Of a DNA stretch of 64,000 nt, positions 45,486 to 56,654 are shown piece after piece. Origin of the DNA: a virus (Duplodnaviria > Caudoviricetes); the IMG/VR virus record IMGVR_UViG_3300021254_000029, positions 1 to 64,000 of that record; one strand, 5' to 3'. The notes under the pieces are model-generated. The model was not told the DNA's origin and did no database searches. It saw nothing but the letters and a program-made list of their open reading frames with translations. Positions within the stretch are counted from its first letter, which is position 1. The number at the start of each line of letters is the position of its first letter. The translations under genes and the position numbers were made by a program.

Positions 45486-45558
45486 TGGAACGTGCAGGGC
45501 TCGAACCTGCGACTCGCGGATTAAAGATCCGCTGCTCTTCCTGCTGAGCTAACGTTCC
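45486..45558 (-). tRNA. tRNA-Lys(UUU), atypical C33
   Basis: Full cloverleaf: GGAACGT/ACGTTCC, GCTC/GAGC, GCGGA-TCTTTAA-TCCGC, GCAGG-TTCGAGC-CCTGC; no encoded CCA. Confidence 0.85.
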
Positions 45559-49145: not shown

Positions 49146-49350
49146 ACATTTCGGCGGCGAGGGCTGTGAACTACCGCGCAGCTAAAGACAGCGCGGCTTC
49201 GGAGCAGGGATTGCTCCTCTCTTTTCCTGCTTCGCCCGCCGAGACGGATGCGCAACACTGCTTCTTAGGCACTCGGTGAGTACGGTCGTCCACAGGAGGT
49301 TGCTCCACAGGCTTGACTTTCCCCCGCACCGGGGGTAGGGCCTCCATCAA
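49146..49350 (-). ncRNA. TnpB omegaRNA (scaffold ending TTCAC at 49166, guide 49165-49146)
   Basis: Right-end hairpin CCGCGC...GCGCGG followed by TAGTTCAC; 5' boundary approximate. Confidence 0.6.
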
Positions 49351-50448
49351 AGCGAGGCCAAACTTTTTGATATTAACGGCGGCATTATGGTCGCGGTCGT
49401 GGTGGGTTCCACACTCAGGACACGTCCACTCCCGTTCCTCCAGCCGCAAACCACGATAGCGATGTCCACAGACATGACACAACTGAGACGAGGGATCGAA
49501 ACGCCCTATCTTGACAAAGCGGATGCCTTGCCACTGGCACTTGTATTCCAGTTGCCGCATGAACTCGCCTATGCTTGCATCGGCAAAGCTGTAGGCGAGG
49601 TGGTGGTTTCGCATCATGCCCTTCACGTTCAGGTCCTCCACACAGATGGCCTGCACTTGGCTCTCGTGCGTCAGCCTGTATGTGGTCTGCCCGATGAAGT
49701 GGGCGCGTCGGTTGGCTACCTTCTCATGCAGCCGTGCTATGCGTTGCTTCGTCCTGCGATAGGCGCAGGAGCCTTTGGTCTTCTTCGAGAGGCGGCGTTG
49801 CAGGAGTTTCAGCTTGCGCTTCTCCTTCTTGGCCTCGTGCGGCGGTTTGATTTCCTCTCCGTCGCTGACCACGGCAAACGTCTTCAGTCCCGCGTCGATG
49901 CCGATAACCTTCTCCGCTGGTACGCTCTTCGGAGCTTCTGGCAGAGGGGCATGGTTCTCGACGAGGATGCTGGCGAAGTATTTGCCCGTCGGTGTCTTGC
50001 TGATGGTGACGGTCTTGATGTCGCCACGGAAGCGGCGGTGCAGCACGGCGGGGATGTCCTTCGCCTTGGGGATGCTGATGGTGCCGTGTCCGAAGTCCAC
50101 GCTGCAATGCTGCGGGCACTGGAAGCTCTGGCGGTCATACTTCCCTTTGAAGTTCGGATAGCGTGCCGTGCCACGGAAGAAGTTGTCGTAGGCCGTGCCG
50201 AGGTTGCGGACGCTCATCTGGAGCGACTGCGAGTTGACTTCGTTCAGCCATTCCTTCTCTGCCTTCAACTCCGACTTCATGCGGTTGATGAGCGTGTTGG
50301 TGCTGATGCTCTCGCCGCGTTCCTTATAGGCCGTGGACTTCATATCAAGCGCCCAGTTCCACACCACACGGCAGCAGCCGAAGGTCTTGGCAAGCAAAAC
50401 CATCTGCTCCTCCGTGGGGTAGATTCTGTATTTGTACGCTCTCTTCAT
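49171..50448 (-). CDS. tnpB: IS200/IS605-family TnpB RNA-guided endonuclease
   Basis: KRAYKYRIYP; RuvC IGID, VED, DRDHNAA; CHVC/CPEC zinc finger. Confidence 0.95.
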   Translation of the reverse strand: MKRAYKYRIYPTEEQMVLLAKTFGCCRVVWNWALDMKSTAYKERGESISTNTLINRMKSELKAEKEWLNEVNSQSLQMSVRNLGTAYDNFFRGTARYPNFKGKYDRQSFQCPQHCSVDFGHGTISIPKAKDIPAVLHRRFRGDIKTVTISKTPTGKYFASILVENHAPLPEAPKSVPAEKVIGIDAGLKTFAVVSDGEEIKPPHEAKKEKRKLKLLQRRLSKKTKGSCAYRRTKQRIARLHEKVANRRAHFIGQTTYRLTHESQVQAICVEDLNVKGMMRNHHLAYSFADASIGEFMRQLEYKCQWQGIRFVKIGRFDPSSQLCHVCGHRYRGLRLEEREWTCPECGTHHDRDHNAAVNIKKFGLALMEALPPVRGKVKPVEQPPVDDRTHRVPKKQCCASVSAGEAGKERSNPCSEAALSLAAR

Positions 50449-51113: not shown

Positions 51114-51815
51114 TTATTCGGCCTTAATTGCTTCCAGTGCAGTCCTTTTGACGATGCCGCTCAGTTCTCTTCCATACGAGGTTGCTTCCTCGTACACATT
51201 CTCGAAGTCGATAGTATTATGCTCGAAGTCGCTCCAGCCCATCGGGTCCTCATATTCACTGCAGGTATTCTCCCAACTTTCCTTGTGACTCTCGATGCAA
51301 GTCTTCAGGGACTCTATCCATCCGTCACGATCCTTGATTTCTTCAGGCGTCAGATCGTCGTCTGCGAAGCCATCATACTCGCTCAGTTCTTCGTCGTGCT
51401 TCTCCATCGTCTGCTGGATTGCTTCAATCATCTTCCTGCGCTCACTCTTCCAGGAGTAATATCTGTCAGTAGTTACCAGCAGCTCGCGAACAAACTCGTC
51501 ACTCTTATTGTCCGCGACTGGAGACCATACACAATCCACCAACAGGCATTGGTTATTCTCCTCGTTCCTGATTGGCCTTTCCGTGATTTCCTCACCCTCT
51601 TCGCATCCTTCAGCATAGACAGTCACCCACTGCACACGGTTGTAGTCTATATCATCCTTCGCCAGAAAATCATCCATCGGGATGAAGTCAGGTGCCCAGC
51701 AGCATGGGTGTTGAACTTCATAAATAACGCCCAAATTGCCTTCGTAGTTATAGATAGGCATATTCTTTCCTGTTGCAGCCTTAAACTCCTGCTTTACCTG
51801 TTCAATAGTCTTCAT
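51114..51815 (-). CDS. acidic hypothetical protein
   Basis: D/E-rich 233 aa. Confidence 0.7.
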   Translation of the reverse strand: MKTIEQVKQEFKAATGKNMPIYNYEGNLGVIYEVQHPCCWAPDFIPMDDFLAKDDIDYNRVQWVTVYAEGCEEGEEITERPIRNEENNQCLLVDCVWSPVADNKSDEFVRELLVTTDRYYSWKSERRKMIEAIQQTMEKHDEELSEYDGFADDDLTPEEIKDRDGWIESLKTCIESHKESWENTCSEYEDPMGWSDFEHNTIDFENVYEEATSYGRELSGIVKRTALEAIKAE

Positions 51816-51917
51816 AGTTTTAAGTTTTTAGTGTTGTTAAACCATTCGTTTTATGTTTTACAACACATCGGACGCGAAAAATGGTAAATAGTAAATTGTC
51901 AAATCGAAAATTTACAT

Positions 51918-52085
51918 TACCTTTGCAACGCAATCCGATGGATTGTCATTCGTCAGCCCTCGGGCTGTGGATTGAAACGAGCTTACGCTCTCACAATTTC
52001 TACTGTATGTAGATGACCGCAGATGCGGTGTCAGCGCCTGGCGCTGAGGATTAAGCCCCGTGGCCCACCCACGGGGCTCTTTCGT
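51918..52085 (+). CRISPR. cluster of solitary CRISPR-repeat mimics (I-C-like / Cas12a-like / I-C-like) with own promoter and terminator
   Basis: TACCTTTG 51918-51925; GTCAGCCCTCGGGCTGTGGATTGAAAC 51952-51978; AATTTCTACTGTATGTAGAT 51995-52014; GTCAGCGCCTGGCGCTGAGGATTAAG 52030-52055; terminator 52054-52083. Confidence 0.8.
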
Positions 52086-52177: not shown

Positions 52178-53113
52178 TTAGACGTTAAAGTACTTCTCAT
52201 CAATGATGTCTCGGATATCATCCTCGAAGGTATCAAGGTCTTCGACAATAGTCTTGGACCAGAACTCGGTGGGGTTATTCTCATAGTCGCTACGCACGGA
52301 AGCGGCAGCAGCTGCGGCGTCATCATACTCGTAGAAATTGAAAGTCTCGTTCAATACTGAGACAAGATGTTCCTTTTCCTCGATGAGCATATCTCCCCAT
52401 GAGTTAAAAGTCTTCTTCCGAAGGTCTTTCAGATAGCTCTCGATGTATGCTTCGGCCTTGAAGTTCCATTTCCACTCTCCTTCGCCGCACGAACAGCCGT
52501 CGTGCAGGCGCTCCTCAATCAGGTCGTAACGTTCTTGCGGCGACAAGCCTTCCAATTCCGATGCCTTAACCAATACGCTGCACTGGTTACGGAACGTATG
52601 GTCTTCGTGAATGCACATCTCCGTGGTTTCGCCATACATACCTCTGCGGATGTCGCGGATGCCACGGGCATAACCGACATACCGATCCCAGTACCAGATG
52701 ACCAAGATGGCGCCTGTGACGCTCTCGTATTCGTAGGTGATACCAACTTCATCGCGGACGTCAATGTCACTGACGGAGGCAGCGATCTTCATCAAGTCAT
52801 CGTCGCCAAACGCATCCTCGCCATATTCCTCCACATCTTCCCAATCAACGTCTTCGATGTCGTTGAGGGTGACGTTAGCCTCCATAAGGTCCACCTCGAT
52901 ACGTTCACCGAAGTCGGCCTTCTTAGCGCCGGACACTTCGCGAAGCTCAGCCTTCGCCTCTTCGATGTCGAAATATAGGGTGCCAACGTTGTCAACGTCT
53001 ATAGGGTCGTCACTCCCATGTTCGCCATCCTGATAGGTATAGATACGGATAAACCATACCTTCGCTGCTTCGCCCGTAGCCTTAATATGCTTAATAAAAT
53101 CTATTGCTTTCAT
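52178..53113 (-). CDS. very acidic hypothetical protein (Acr/DNA-mimic candidate)
   Basis: D/E-rich 311 aa, in operon with HTH gene. Confidence 0.7.
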   Translation of the reverse strand: MKAIDFIKHIKATGEAAKVWFIRIYTYQDGEHGSDDPIDVDNVGTLYFDIEEAKAELREVSGAKKADFGERIEVDLMEANVTLNDIEDVDWEDVEEYGEDAFGDDDLMKIAASVSDIDVRDEVGITYEYESVTGAILVIWYWDRYVGYARGIRDIRRGMYGETTEMCIHEDHTFRNQCSVLVKASELEGLSPQERYDLIEERLHDGCSCGEGEWKWNFKAEAYIESYLKDLRKKTFNSWGDMLIEEKEHLVSVLNETFNFYEYDDAAAAAASVRSDYENNPTEFWSKTIVEDLDTFEDDIRDIIDEKYFNV

Positions 53114-53123
53114 AATTTTTAGT

Positions 53124-53576
53124 TTAATCTTTTGTTACAAATTCCAGTTCCATATCCAGCGCCTTGGCCACCTTCACGAGGATGTCAAGGCCCACGCTGT
53201 ACTTACCCGCCTCGATTCGGGCGATGTGCTCACGGCTCACGCCCACGGCATCGGATAGTTGCTGCTGCGTCATGCCGTGTTCATTGCGCACCTGAGCGAT
53301 ACGCTGACCGATACGCTGACGCTCAACTTCTACGTGCGATCTAACGCGATCGCATACGAGATCTATCCACTCGCCGTTATCGCTCACCAGACAGTCGTTT
53401 ACGACGTATTGCTGCCCATCTACCTCAATGGTCTCGCTGTCGATGTCGAAGTTCACCTTCAGCAGGGGGCAGTCCTTGTTGAACGGGATAGTCACGATGT
53501 AGTAACTACCCTCATTCGTGATTTCTCGGAAATTTTCAATTAAGAACATAAGTTTGAAGTTATTGCGTGTTACCAC
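53124..53576 (-). CDS. protein with C-terminal XRE HTH (Aca-like candidate)
   Basis: MTQQQLSDAVGVSREHIARIEAGKYSVGLDIL. Confidence 0.8.
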   Translation of the reverse strand: MVTRNNFKLMFLIENFREITNEGSYYIVTIPFNKDCPLLKVNFDIDSETIEVDGQQYVVNDCLVSDNGEWIDLVCDRVRSHVEVERQRIGQRIAQVRNEHGMTQQQLSDAVGVSREHIARIEAGKYSVGLDILVKVAKALDMELEFVTKD

Positions 53577-54938: not shown

Positions 54939-56654
54939 TCATGCCACTTTCTCGAACCAGTCGCGCCAGTCGTCCACGCCTTTGCCTTTGTCCTGATAGA
55001 TAGGCCATGCGTGGTTTGCGTTTCCGCTCTCATTGGTAATAAAGCCCAAGAAATAATCATGTTCCCGTTCGGAGCGATACACCATATCCTTGCGGTACAC
55101 CATTGTTCCGTCTTTGCATGTCATATCCTTCTTACAGCGGAATAGGTCGCCCTTGTCGATGCGGGGAATAAGTTTCGATGGAGACTGCTGCCAACCGTCG
55201 CCCTTCTTGGGCAGTGTCCAGCCCTTTGTCTTGGCAACTTCGGCATTGAACTTATACCACACATCCTCGTCCAGAAACTCGAAGTGCATAGTGCCCTTCT
55301 TGAACGCCTTGCAGCGGAAGAAGCCCCAAATAAACCATGTGTTCCATTCCAAGTGACTGCAGTCATACCATGCAGGAATTTCGTTATAGTCGCGCCCTGT
55401 CAGGTAGCACAACGCCTTGCAGACATCGTACATCTTATCTACGCTGGAACCGCTCACCCTCACATACTCGCGCCCTACCCTCTTGCGGGCCATACTCCAG
55501 GATTTCCCTGTATATTCCCAGTCGTAGCCGTCGCACATATAGGGGATGATAAACTTGCGGTTGACCATATAGTTGGCATTCGTCTTCCATGTCTCTCCCG
55601 CCGTGGAGTTTTCGGCACTGAACGAACATATATGCTCAAAGGCTTCCACCAATGCCTTGTGCATCCGCTGACCGTGCGTCTGCACAATCATGTCGAGCAC
55701 ACGGTAGATGTTGCCCATTGTGAAAGGCACGTTCACCTGTTTCTCCACAAAGCGGTTCATCTGGTCGCGCAGCGATTGCGTTTCGTACTTTTCCATCTTT
55801 AGCATCTGGAAGATGGTGCGCCAATAGTATTTCTTCAGTTGCTTCTTGTACTCCTCTCGGGTGATACCCGTTACACGATTTTCGCGGGTCTCTACAGCGC
55901 GAAACTCTATGGGAGGCTCATCATACCGACTGTCCGTAGCCCGTGCCGTCTCGTTGATGCGCTGCGTCATCTCCATCACTTCGTCGAACATCTTCACGGC
56001 ACTCATGTAGCGGTTTACCAGTTCGCGCACCACATTGTGCTGCACCAGTCCCTCCGTCTCGTTCATGTTCAGCGCGTCCTCGTCCTGCTGACTGAACATA
56101 TAGTCCTGCCATTCCTCTTCGCCTGTGCCCTCCTTATAGAGTTTCACCAGCGCCACCTCCACGCTCGTCTTGCGCTCGGCGGTCTCAAACACCTTGCCCA
56201 GACGCTCCGTGTAGCCATAGAGCTGTATGTTTTCGTACAGGATTTTGTTGCGGTTGTAGCTGTGATATTCACTCACACTGTCATCGTTGCATAGTGCAAT
56301 CACTACACATCCCGGAGGTGCAATCTCGAAAGCGTGTAGTATATGCTCGACACCCTTCGAGAAGGGCGGGTTCATCACAATCATATCCACGTGACTCACC
56401 TGCTCGCTCGTTACCGTCAGGAAGTCGTCTGCCACCAACCGACACTTGTCAGCCAATAGTTTCCTACAATGCGGGTCGTTCTCGCAAGCAATCACCTCCG
56501 CCGCACCGTTCTCCTTCAGCCAGTCAACAATGTTTCCGCTACCGGCGCTCGGTTCCAGGATAATCTTGCCAGCCACGTCTTCGCCCATCATCATCTGCTC
56601 GATAACCTCCTTAGGCGTAGGATAGAAATCGGGGTTATTCGTAAATAAGTTCAT
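54939..56654 (-). CDS. N6-adenine methyltransferase with DUF4942-like domain
   Basis: DFYPTP, ILEPSAGSG, MNPPF; FKKGTMHFEF. Confidence 0.85.
   Translation of the reverse strand: MNLFTNNPDFYPTPKEVIEQMMMGEDVAGKIILEPSAGSGNIVDWLKENGAAEVIACENDPHCRKLLADKCRLVADDFLTVTSEQVSHVDMIVMNPPFSKGVEHILHAFEIAPPGCVVIALCNDDSVSEYHSYNRNKILYENIQLYGYTERLGKVFETAERKTSVEVALVKLYKEGTGEEEWQDYMFSQQDEDALNMNETEGLVQHNVVRELVNRYMSAVKMFDEVMEMTQRINETARATDSRYDEPPIEFRAVETRENRVTGITREEYKKQLKKYYWRTIFQMLKMEKYETQSLRDQMNRFVEKQVNVPFTMGNIYRVLDMIVQTHGQRMHKALVEAFEHICSFSAENSTAGETWKTNANYMVNRKFIIPYMCDGYDWEYTGKSWSMARKRVGREYVRVSGSSVDKMYDVCKALCYLTGRDYNEIPAWYDCSHLEWNTWFIWGFFRCKAFKKGTMHFEFLDEDVWYKFNAEVAKTKGWTLPKKGDGWQQSPSKLIPRIDKGDLFRCKKDMTCKDGTMVYRKDMVYRSEREHDYFLGFITNESGNANHAWPIYQDKGKGVDDWRDWFEKVA

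Follow-up and report, generated by a model that had tools for sequence, protein, structure and literature searches.

A phage RNA that chains mimics of type I-C and type V-A CRISPR repeats, a probable multivalent RNA anti-CRISPR

Can one small phage transcript carry decoys for more than one type of CRISPR (short palindromic repeats that are clustered and regularly interspaced) immunity? The question arises from a compact plus-strand RNA unit in a 64,000-nucleotide (nt) stretch of viral DNA (Duplodnaviria; Caudoviricetes), which we call the window. The window covers the opening 64 kb of an IMG/VR virus record (IMGVR_UViG_3300021254_000029) that is 96 kb long and ~80% complete. The unit has its own promoter box and terminator-like hairpin, its predicted transcript is ~150 nt long, and it holds three repeat-like units of two CRISPR types inside 104 nt. 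A preliminary description, made from the letters of the window alone, had proposed that repeat mimics of different CRISPR types are joined here in one transcript that probably acts as an RNA anti-CRISPR (Racr). The comparative evidence strongly supports that core proposal. We put at roughly two in three the probability that the RNA is a multivalent anti-CRISPR of the Racr kind, in which I-C, V-A, and degenerate I-C-like repeat mimics would share one transcript without real spacers. We favor this reading because the RNA belongs to a large conserved family with compensatory stems, an invariant handle, and modules swapped among its members, and because I-C arrays target the phages concerned. The sequence anatomy of the RNA, its conservation, covariation, and module swapping, its likeness to arrays, and the I-C targeting of the phage family are directly established.

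The window RNA resembles genuine repeats part by part. A real I-C repeat, which is ~32 nt long, has an initial GTC, a GC-rich stem-loop, and the tail TGGATTGAAAC, and these three features are all present in the window's I-C unit of 27 nt. In a metagenome scan, we found at least 120 real I-C arrays of the form GTCAC...GTG-TGGATTGAAAC, with the same plan as in GTCACACCCTTCGTGGGTGTG-TGGATTGAAAC, many of them from human-gut assemblies. The real I-C repeat of one sampled genome (G332), which adjoins Cas8c (E = 2e-166), reads GTCGTATCCCGCTGGGGTACG-TGGGTTGAAAC, with a few copies carrying TGGATTGAAAC. V-A repeats are ~36 nt long and end in AAUUUCUACU-loop-GUAGAU; the corresponding part of the window RNA is 36 nt long with an exact handle. 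Several real Bacteroidia V-A repeats are likewise 36 nt long and place a small 5' hairpin (e.g., GGC-TATAAA-GCC) a few nt before the handle. In a Victivallaceae metagenome-assembled genome (MAG; L143, JAZONY010000136.1), the repeats of a 20-repeat V-A array end in exactly the window's Cas12a handle, loop GTAT included. Aligning the units to host arrays, as the preliminary description had suggested, thus returned an identical V-A handle together with an I-C plan and an 11-nt I-C handle that are common to real arrays. The Cas12a handle occurs once in the window, where 0.03 occurrences would be expected by chance even with two mismatches allowed. The composite unit is the sole one in the entire 96-kb record, which holds no further I-C or V-A repeat. 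When folded, the RNA forms successive hairpins with an energy of -70.9 kcal/mol (z = -5.1), a value equaled by none of 200 shuffles.

All elements listed in the preliminary description are present between positions 51918 and 52084 (Table 1). Two of them, however, call for different names. The segments between handles had been called 'spacers', too short to be real and folding on themselves. Both do form hairpins, but the first is more aptly taken as the 5' half of a V-A repeat mimic: hairpin 1 and the Cas12a handle together span 33 to 36 nt in 29 of 33 unique units of the family, like real Bacteroidia V-A repeats. The second (hairpin 2) occupies the position of the degenerate terminal I-C-like hairpin of related phage RNAs, and there too the spacer label did not stand. 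In relatives, the hairpin of the terminal unit is followed by tails such as TGGTAAG, TGGTTAG, GGATTTAG, and TGAATTAAG. By its sequence, the hairpin past the Cas12a handle, with tails like TGGTAAG, GGATTTAG, and AGGATTAAG, appears to behave as a degenerate terminal I-C repeat. The degenerate I-C-like unit that lies past hairpin 2 as an extra unit is found in the window only. At the other end, the 5' hairpin of the window RNA may be a decayed extra unit, since the 7 nt of its 3' arm (TGGATTG) are also those with which the I-C handle begins.

We recovered relatives from IMG/VR by scanning for the I-C handle followed within 10 to 25 nt by the Cas12a handle, for the Cas12a handle alone, and for a subfamily motif outside the V-A unit. 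The first pattern alone occurred in 27 further viral contigs, and phage contigs with the same plan number well over 100 among the matches listed. From these matches we analyzed 49 units (33 of them unique), along with a separate set of 46 unique members retrieved by the subfamily motif. The -7 promoter box that had been reported for the window is indeed there, and 41 of 45 family units have its pattern (TAnnTTTG) upstream, where the background is 0.12 per 200 nt; the distances fall into clusters according to architecture. Downstream, a strong hairpin followed by at least four T residues was found in 41/45 units. With few exceptions, the relatives examined carry the RNA as the only plus-strand gene in a run of small minus-strand genes. 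The flanking genes form a mosaic of families and are mostly unrelated between contigs; therefore, the RNA rather than its neighborhood is the conserved item. Judged by this comparison of sequences, the locus is a real, conserved, and self-contained small-RNA gene of Bacteroidota phage. In two members of the family (L091:621-654 and L139:1765-1798), the 3' end of the RNA gene, namely, the terminator T-run and the sequence downstream of it, is matched by one host I-C spacer (array L293; 33/34 nt, with a TTC motif beside it).

The family is also modular. Among the matches listed, the unique non-coding units with a Cas12a handle comprised 50 solitary units, 27 with I-C and V-A modules, 16 with I-B, I-C, and V-A modules, 4 with I-B and V-A modules (as in L043 and L066), and 1 with two I-C modules and a V-A module. 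The I-B module starts further upstream in one large subfamily and reads TTTAATCG(T/A)ACCTTTATGGAATTGAAA(G/T). It is the reverse complement of repeats labeled type I-B in the supplementary data of the Racr paper (PMC10651486). A Bacteroidales genome (G537) has a very large array, of 66-nt period, whose repeat agrees with the module at 26 of 29 positions. In one contig (L093), I-B-like, I-C-like, and V-A units are chained with almost no sequence between them. Conserved or swapped units in related phages had been named beforehand as a check of the anti-CRISPR proposal, and this range of architectures supplies both.

Stem conservation was analyzed by a script that anchors each helix at its base, as alignment with MAFFT and RNAalifold misaligned the short hairpins. 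Paired stretches of 5 bp or more are present in all 18 distinct I-C stems, although the sequences change in a compensatory way: the pairs at stem position 3 are GC, AT, CG, and TA in 9, 7, 1, and 1 stems, and those at position 4 are CG, GC, AT, and TA in 8, 5, 3, and 2. Hairpin 1 behaves alike: of the 21 distinct segments that follow the I-C handle, 19 pair from the first nt into a stem of 4 bp or longer, against 1.3 such segments on average and 6 at most among 2,000 shuffles. The invariance of the Cas12a handle in our first scans was a product of the search patterns, and hence we tested it on the 46 members retrieved by the motif outside the V-A unit. The Cas12a handle was exact in 44 of them; there was a single mismatch in one, and in another the unit was lost. 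Two natural variants are on record: L448 keeps the I-C unit and hairpin 1 and has lost the Cas12a handle, and L462 has GAAGAT in place of GTAGAT, which breaks the handle stem.

These patterns bear on whether the repeat likeness has any function. The RNA could be a structured phage small RNA of another role, such as an antisense regulator of its flanks or a remnant of captured host arrays. It is antisense to its neighbors, with a terminator that points at the end of an operon running toward it. Yet an exact Cas12a handle of 19 to 20 nt persists in 44/46 members while the surrounding stems change, it is accompanied by an 11-nt I-C handle and by the 26/29 match to an I-B repeat, and contigs with unrelated flanks carry the modules in different combinations. 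A remnant would be expected to decay, and a regulator acting in antisense to follow its neighbors. We consider this explanation improbable.

Spacing between the modules raised a second alternative. In 20 of 33 units, 34 to 37 nt separate the I-C handle from the next hairpin, which is the geometry of a real I-C repeat-spacer-repeat unit, and host I-C spacers are 33 to 35 nt long. Phage mini-arrays are a known class (PMC10651486, PMC11656645), and the RNA might be a working phage-borne I-C mini-array with the V-A repeat as its spacer, which would turn I-C Cascade-Cas3 on V-A-repeat DNA in host Cas12a arrays or in the V-A decoys of rival phages. However, the PAM-proximal 12 to 14 nt of such a spacer (PAM, protospacer-adjacent motif) would fall in hairpin 1, where they vary compensatorily and match no sampled V-A repeat, and the PAM would sit in variable sequence. 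The distances are also off in an L003-like group (39 to 44 nt) and for the third unit of the window (51 nt), and I-C and V-A systems occurred together in no sampled genome. A working mini-array is thus very unlikely, the least probable of the explanations that we weighed. The same geometry fits decoys of the Racr kind in another way: because of the 34-to-37-nt spacing in 20/33 units and the 33-to-35-nt host spacers, the V-A mimic may double as spacer-sized filler of a complete but useless I-C CRISPR RNA (crRNA).

A third alternative is that the RNA guides rather than decoys. Regulatory crRNA-like RNAs of the Cracr kind carry a spacer-like guide with at least nine PAM-proximal matches to host cas/creT promoters (Liu et al., 10.1101/2024.10.29.618823). 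Under this alternative, one or more segments past the handles would direct Cascade or Cas12a to such promoters of the host for repression, while the RNA would also compete with crRNAs. Viral V-A, I-C, I-E, and I-F Cracrs are known, composed of a psi-repeat, a psi-spacer, and a terminator and sometimes arranged in arrays (10.1101/2024.10.29.618823). In a subgroup of our family, the segments past the I-C handle (AAAAATCGATTCAG) are unstructured (L097:3554-3688(-), L121:3350-3484(+), and L105:9314-9439(-)), and one of them, with TTC before it, matches a site beside the I-C array of one host species. The subgroup also has a ~28-nt unstructured tail past the Cas12a handle, and there are two I-C units in L105. 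These members may be guide-type, Cracr-like RNAs rather than pure decoys, although the lone match represents one independent locus, lies inside an open reading frame (ORF), and compares with 1.5 matches expected by chance. In the main family, including the window, a covarying hairpin follows the I-C handle, another hairpin follows the Cas12a handle after a linker that varies from 0 to 10 nt, and there is no conserved PAM-proximal seed. When we scanned 1.4 Mb of I-C and 0.14 Mb of V-A host loci (the promoters of the cognate hosts lying outside them) for a PAM plus 9 nt, seeds of the main family gave no match. We favor a decoy of the Racr kind over a guide because the candidate seed changes by compensatory mutation, the linker is 0 to 10 nt long, and no seed matches in the host loci scanned exceed chance, which leaves the guide explanation unlikely for the family, if somewhat less so than the other two alternatives.

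The phage family is under attack by I-C systems. Fifteen distinct spacers of metagenomic I-C arrays match the family at near full length (up to 35/35 nt), and the I-C PAM 5'-TTC lies beside 14 of the 15 matches checked. When more phage loci were compared, the matches grew to 34 distinct spacers from 9 real I-C arrays against 42 phage-family loci. All eight arrays with full-length matches that were checked have the repeat GTCACACCCTTCGTGGGTGTGTGGATTGAAAC or a close variant. One array contig encodes SusD-like, sulfatase, maturase, BT4734-like, and DUF3874 genes; we therefore place the host in the Bacteroidota on account of the SusD-like, sulfatase, and BT4734-like genes. An exact-protein look-up for the I-C host returned no entry, and the nearest sampled genome is only 69% identical. 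The Prevotella context suggested in the preliminary description is supported as far as the level of Bacteroidota. The 141 spacers of the V-A arrays and the G332 I-C array, followed by 78 I-B spacers plus the I-C spacers of G601 and G480, gave no significant phage matches.

Do I-C and V-A systems share a cell in which both could be blocked? V-A arrays were found in 8 genomes of a 401-genome Bacteroidia sample. Cas8c was absent from the nine genomes with V-A arrays (these eight plus the Victivallaceae MAG), and none of ten V-A genomes checked (eight with arrays, two with single repeats) had an I-C array with the GTGGATTGAAAC handle. Conversely, no V-A handle was present in the I-C hosts G601 and G480 or in the I-B host G537, and in ten genomes the I-B pattern gave nothing beyond chance singletons. 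Within this host genome sample, which is limited in size and lacks the true host species, no genome had two of the three CRISPR types. The idea that class 1 and class 2 immunity are jammed together in one host therefore found no support in the sample. Because no sampled genome combines two types, it is more likely that one RNA covers alternative hosts or strains than that it jams two systems in one cell.

Several results weigh against the anti-CRISPR reading of the window RNA. The lack of any sampled genome with two of the three types is one of them. The window's own phage has no match among the spacers compared. The Victivallaceae MAG, which is not Bacteroidota, is the only sampled species-representative genome that has the window's exact handle loop in an array. 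The window's I-C unit is 27 nt long with a 5-bp stem, whereas real arrays have 32-nt repeats with 7-bp stems, and phage I-C units overall (27 to 31 nt, stems of 5 to 7 bp) are shorter and less GC-rich than the real 32-nt repeats. The canonical G is rare at position 7 of the I-C handle in the I-B, I-C, and V-A members that had not been selected on this handle, which makes recognition by Cas5d an assumption: these members carry TGGATTTAAAC in 11 cases, TGGATTCAAAC in 4, TGGATTAAAAC in 2, and the canonical sequence in 1. The terminator claimed for the window is present as a GC hairpin, but its U-tract (TCTTTCG) is weak and was not called by a consensus terminator scan, whereas relatives have strong T-runs. 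Finally, contigs carrying composite units are absent from a portion of the table of solitary repeat units (SRUs) published with the Racr paper (PMC10651486).

Further observations concern the I-B, I-C, and V-A members. Those with T, C, or A at handle position 7 include L039, L052, L060, and L069, and the I-C arrays that target phages with a changed position 7 carry the canonical TGGATTGAAAC. In L052, L060, and L006, a 5' element, GTCTTCGGA(A/G)G, lies ~60 to 110 nt upstream of the Cas12a handle and can pair with a conserved C(T/C)TCCGTTGAC directly before the I-C unit; the change from GGAAG/CTTCC to GGAGGG/CCCTCC is compensatory. This pairing of GTCTTCGGA and TCCGTTGAC would put the I-B module inside a long-range helix.

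Table 1 Features of the window RNA and of its surroundings (positions in the window)
Feature	Positions	Strand	Remarks
RNA unit	51918-52084	+	
Weak -33-like ATTG	51895-51898		
Bacteroidota-type -7 promoter box TACCTTTG (TAnnTTTG)	51918-51925	+	putative promoter; predicted transcription start ~51930
5' hairpin CAATCC-GAT-GGATTG	51931-51945	+	common only to the window and its closest relative, L021
Type I-C repeat mimic GTCAGCCCTCGGGCTG+TGGATTGAAAC	51952-51978	+	27 nt; begins with GT
Stem-loop of I-C mimic, CAGCC-CTCG-GGCTG	51954-51967	+	
5' handle of I-C mimic, TGGATTGAAAC	51968-51978	+	11 nt
Predicted Cas5d cut	between 51967 and 51968	+	
Full-length V-A repeat mimic	51979-52014	+	36 nt
5' hairpin of V-A mimic (hairpin 1), GAGC-TTAC-GCTC	51979-51990	+	linker TCAC next
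Exact Cas12a handle AATTTCTACTGTATGTAGAT = AATTTCTACT-GTAT-GTAGAT	51995-52014	+	20 nt
Predicted Cas12a cut	between 51994 and 51995	+	
Hairpin 2, ACCGC-AGAT-GCGGT	52016-52029	+	starts 37 nt past the I-C handle
Degenerate I-C-like unit GTCAGCGCCTGGCGCTG+AGGATTAAG	52030-52055	+	GT, CAGCGC-CTG-GCGCTG, truncated handle AGGATTAAG
Terminator-like GC hairpin GCCCCGTGG-CCCAC-CCACGGGGC	52055-52077	+	then TCTTTCG, to 52084
tRNA gene	45486-45558	-	Rfam RF00005, 64 bits; only tRNA in the window
Transposase-like protein	49171-50448	-	425 amino acids (aa); phrog_506, E = 6e-131; 1.5 kb from the RNA, in the same minus-strand gene run
Very acidic protein	51114-51815	-	233 aa; isoelectric point ~4.3
Very acidic protein	52178-53113	-	311 aa; isoelectric point ~4.3
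HTH_3 (XRE-type) protein	53124-53576	-	
Protein with N-terminal DNA methyltransferase-like region	54939-56654	-	571 aa; phrog_32703, phrog_799

As the preliminary description had noted, the RNA is antisense to its surroundings and apart from any cas locus: all adjoining ORFs are on the minus strand, and no cas genes or families were seen among its neighbors. An Rfam search returned no family at threshold for the RNA region, with only a weak match to CRISPR-DR10, and the window had no match in the GenBank phage collection by megablast or, with a 1166-aa ORF as query, by tblastn. The two acidic proteins that flank the RNA have no Pfam, PHROG, or PDB relative. Homologs of the 311-aa protein and of the HTH_3 protein recur near the RNA in two relatives (L013 and L016), and together the acidic proteins and the HTH_3 protein could form a candidate acr-aca-like neighborhood.

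How does the RNA compare with known systems? RacrIC1 and RacrVA1-3, each a single unit, were validated individually and inhibited I-C and V-A systems in experiments (Camara-Wilpert et al., Nature 2023; PMC10651486). The window RNA mimics the same two subtypes, each the target of validated single Racrs, and it is likewise encoded by a virus outside a CRISPR-Cas locus and resembles real repeats in sequence and structure. It differs in that published Racrs are solitary and of one type, whereas here two to three types from class 1 and class 2 are chained, with a degenerate terminal repeat and no spacers; moreover, the present family belongs to Bacteroidota phages. SRUFinder sets aside units that have partial repeats nearby, within about 100 bp (PMC10651486), and by that rule the three closely packed units of the window RNA do not count as solitary. 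Like Cracrs, the family consists of viral crRNA-like RNAs probably directed at V-A and type I systems, is sometimes multiplexed, and has a degenerate repeat before a terminator. Unlike them, it joins units of different types (I-C and V-A, with I-B in relatives), and its inter-handle segments are structural hairpins. According to the Cracr preprint, which reports arrays and names no Bacteroidota, RNAs encoded together are always aimed at one and the same CRISPR type (10.1101/2024.10.29.618823).

Host CreA/CreR crRNA-like regulators and phage mini-arrays resemble the family in having a full and a degenerate repeat with an insert of spacer size, and the geometry of 20/33 units fits an I-C repeat-spacer-repeat. 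Here, however, the insert is the conserved repeat of another CRISPR type and not a spacer derived from a target or matching a promoter. Genuine Bacteroidota repeats share the 11-nt I-C handle, the GTCA start, the stem-loop, the exact Cas12a handle with its 5' mini-hairpin, and 26/29 positions of the I-B module. In contrast to them, the phage units are single copies without an array, variable spacers, or adjacent cas genes, and they have shorter I-C stems and often a changed handle position 7. A full-text literature search found no published description of mixed-type repeat-mimic units, in agreement with the preliminary description, which knew of no such mixed array, and the arrays of the Cracr preprint each keep to one CRISPR type. 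The combination of several types is apparently undescribed, whereas the RNA anti-CRISPRs known so far are all single-type units.

From these sequences, we infer transcription, processing, Cas binding, and inhibition. The transcript would be a chain of an I-C repeat, a full V-A repeat, and a degenerate I-C-like terminal repeat before the terminator. Each module would be recognized by the Cas protein that usually binds its repeat, namely, Cas5d/Cascade for I-C and Cas12a for V-A, and the I-B module of relatives presumably by Cas6. Once a module has been cut out or held, Cas proteins would be tied up in non-targeting complexes that compete with host crRNAs. With its modules combined, a single phage gene would probably be effective whatever host strain or species the phage encounters.

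A bolder version of this mechanism is conceivable, though we hold it only tentatively and think it more apt to be wrong than right. Phages would assemble I-B, I-C, and V-A mimics into modular decoy cassettes against all of these systems, and host Cas nucleases would cut the transcript into separate decoys. With the V-A repeat nested as I-C filler, the same nucleotides would either load a full, useless Cascade or capture Cas12a, depending on the system of the cell. On this view, the frequent change at handle position 7 would poison the handle on purpose, permitting binding and blocking function.

What the RNA presents is mimicry of class 1 and class 2 repeats within ~150 nt, widespread in phages of gut Bacteroidota that are under type I-C attack. 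If the anti-CRISPR reading is true, phages solve the variable CRISPR content of their hosts with swappable RNA modules, and the way in which such units escape pipelines that search for solitary repeats is explained. They would also offer inhibitors that are very compact and can be genetically encoded, or switches that depend on processing, each acting on several Cas effectors together. The reading predicts that the modules carried by a phage follow the range of CRISPR systems present in its host population.
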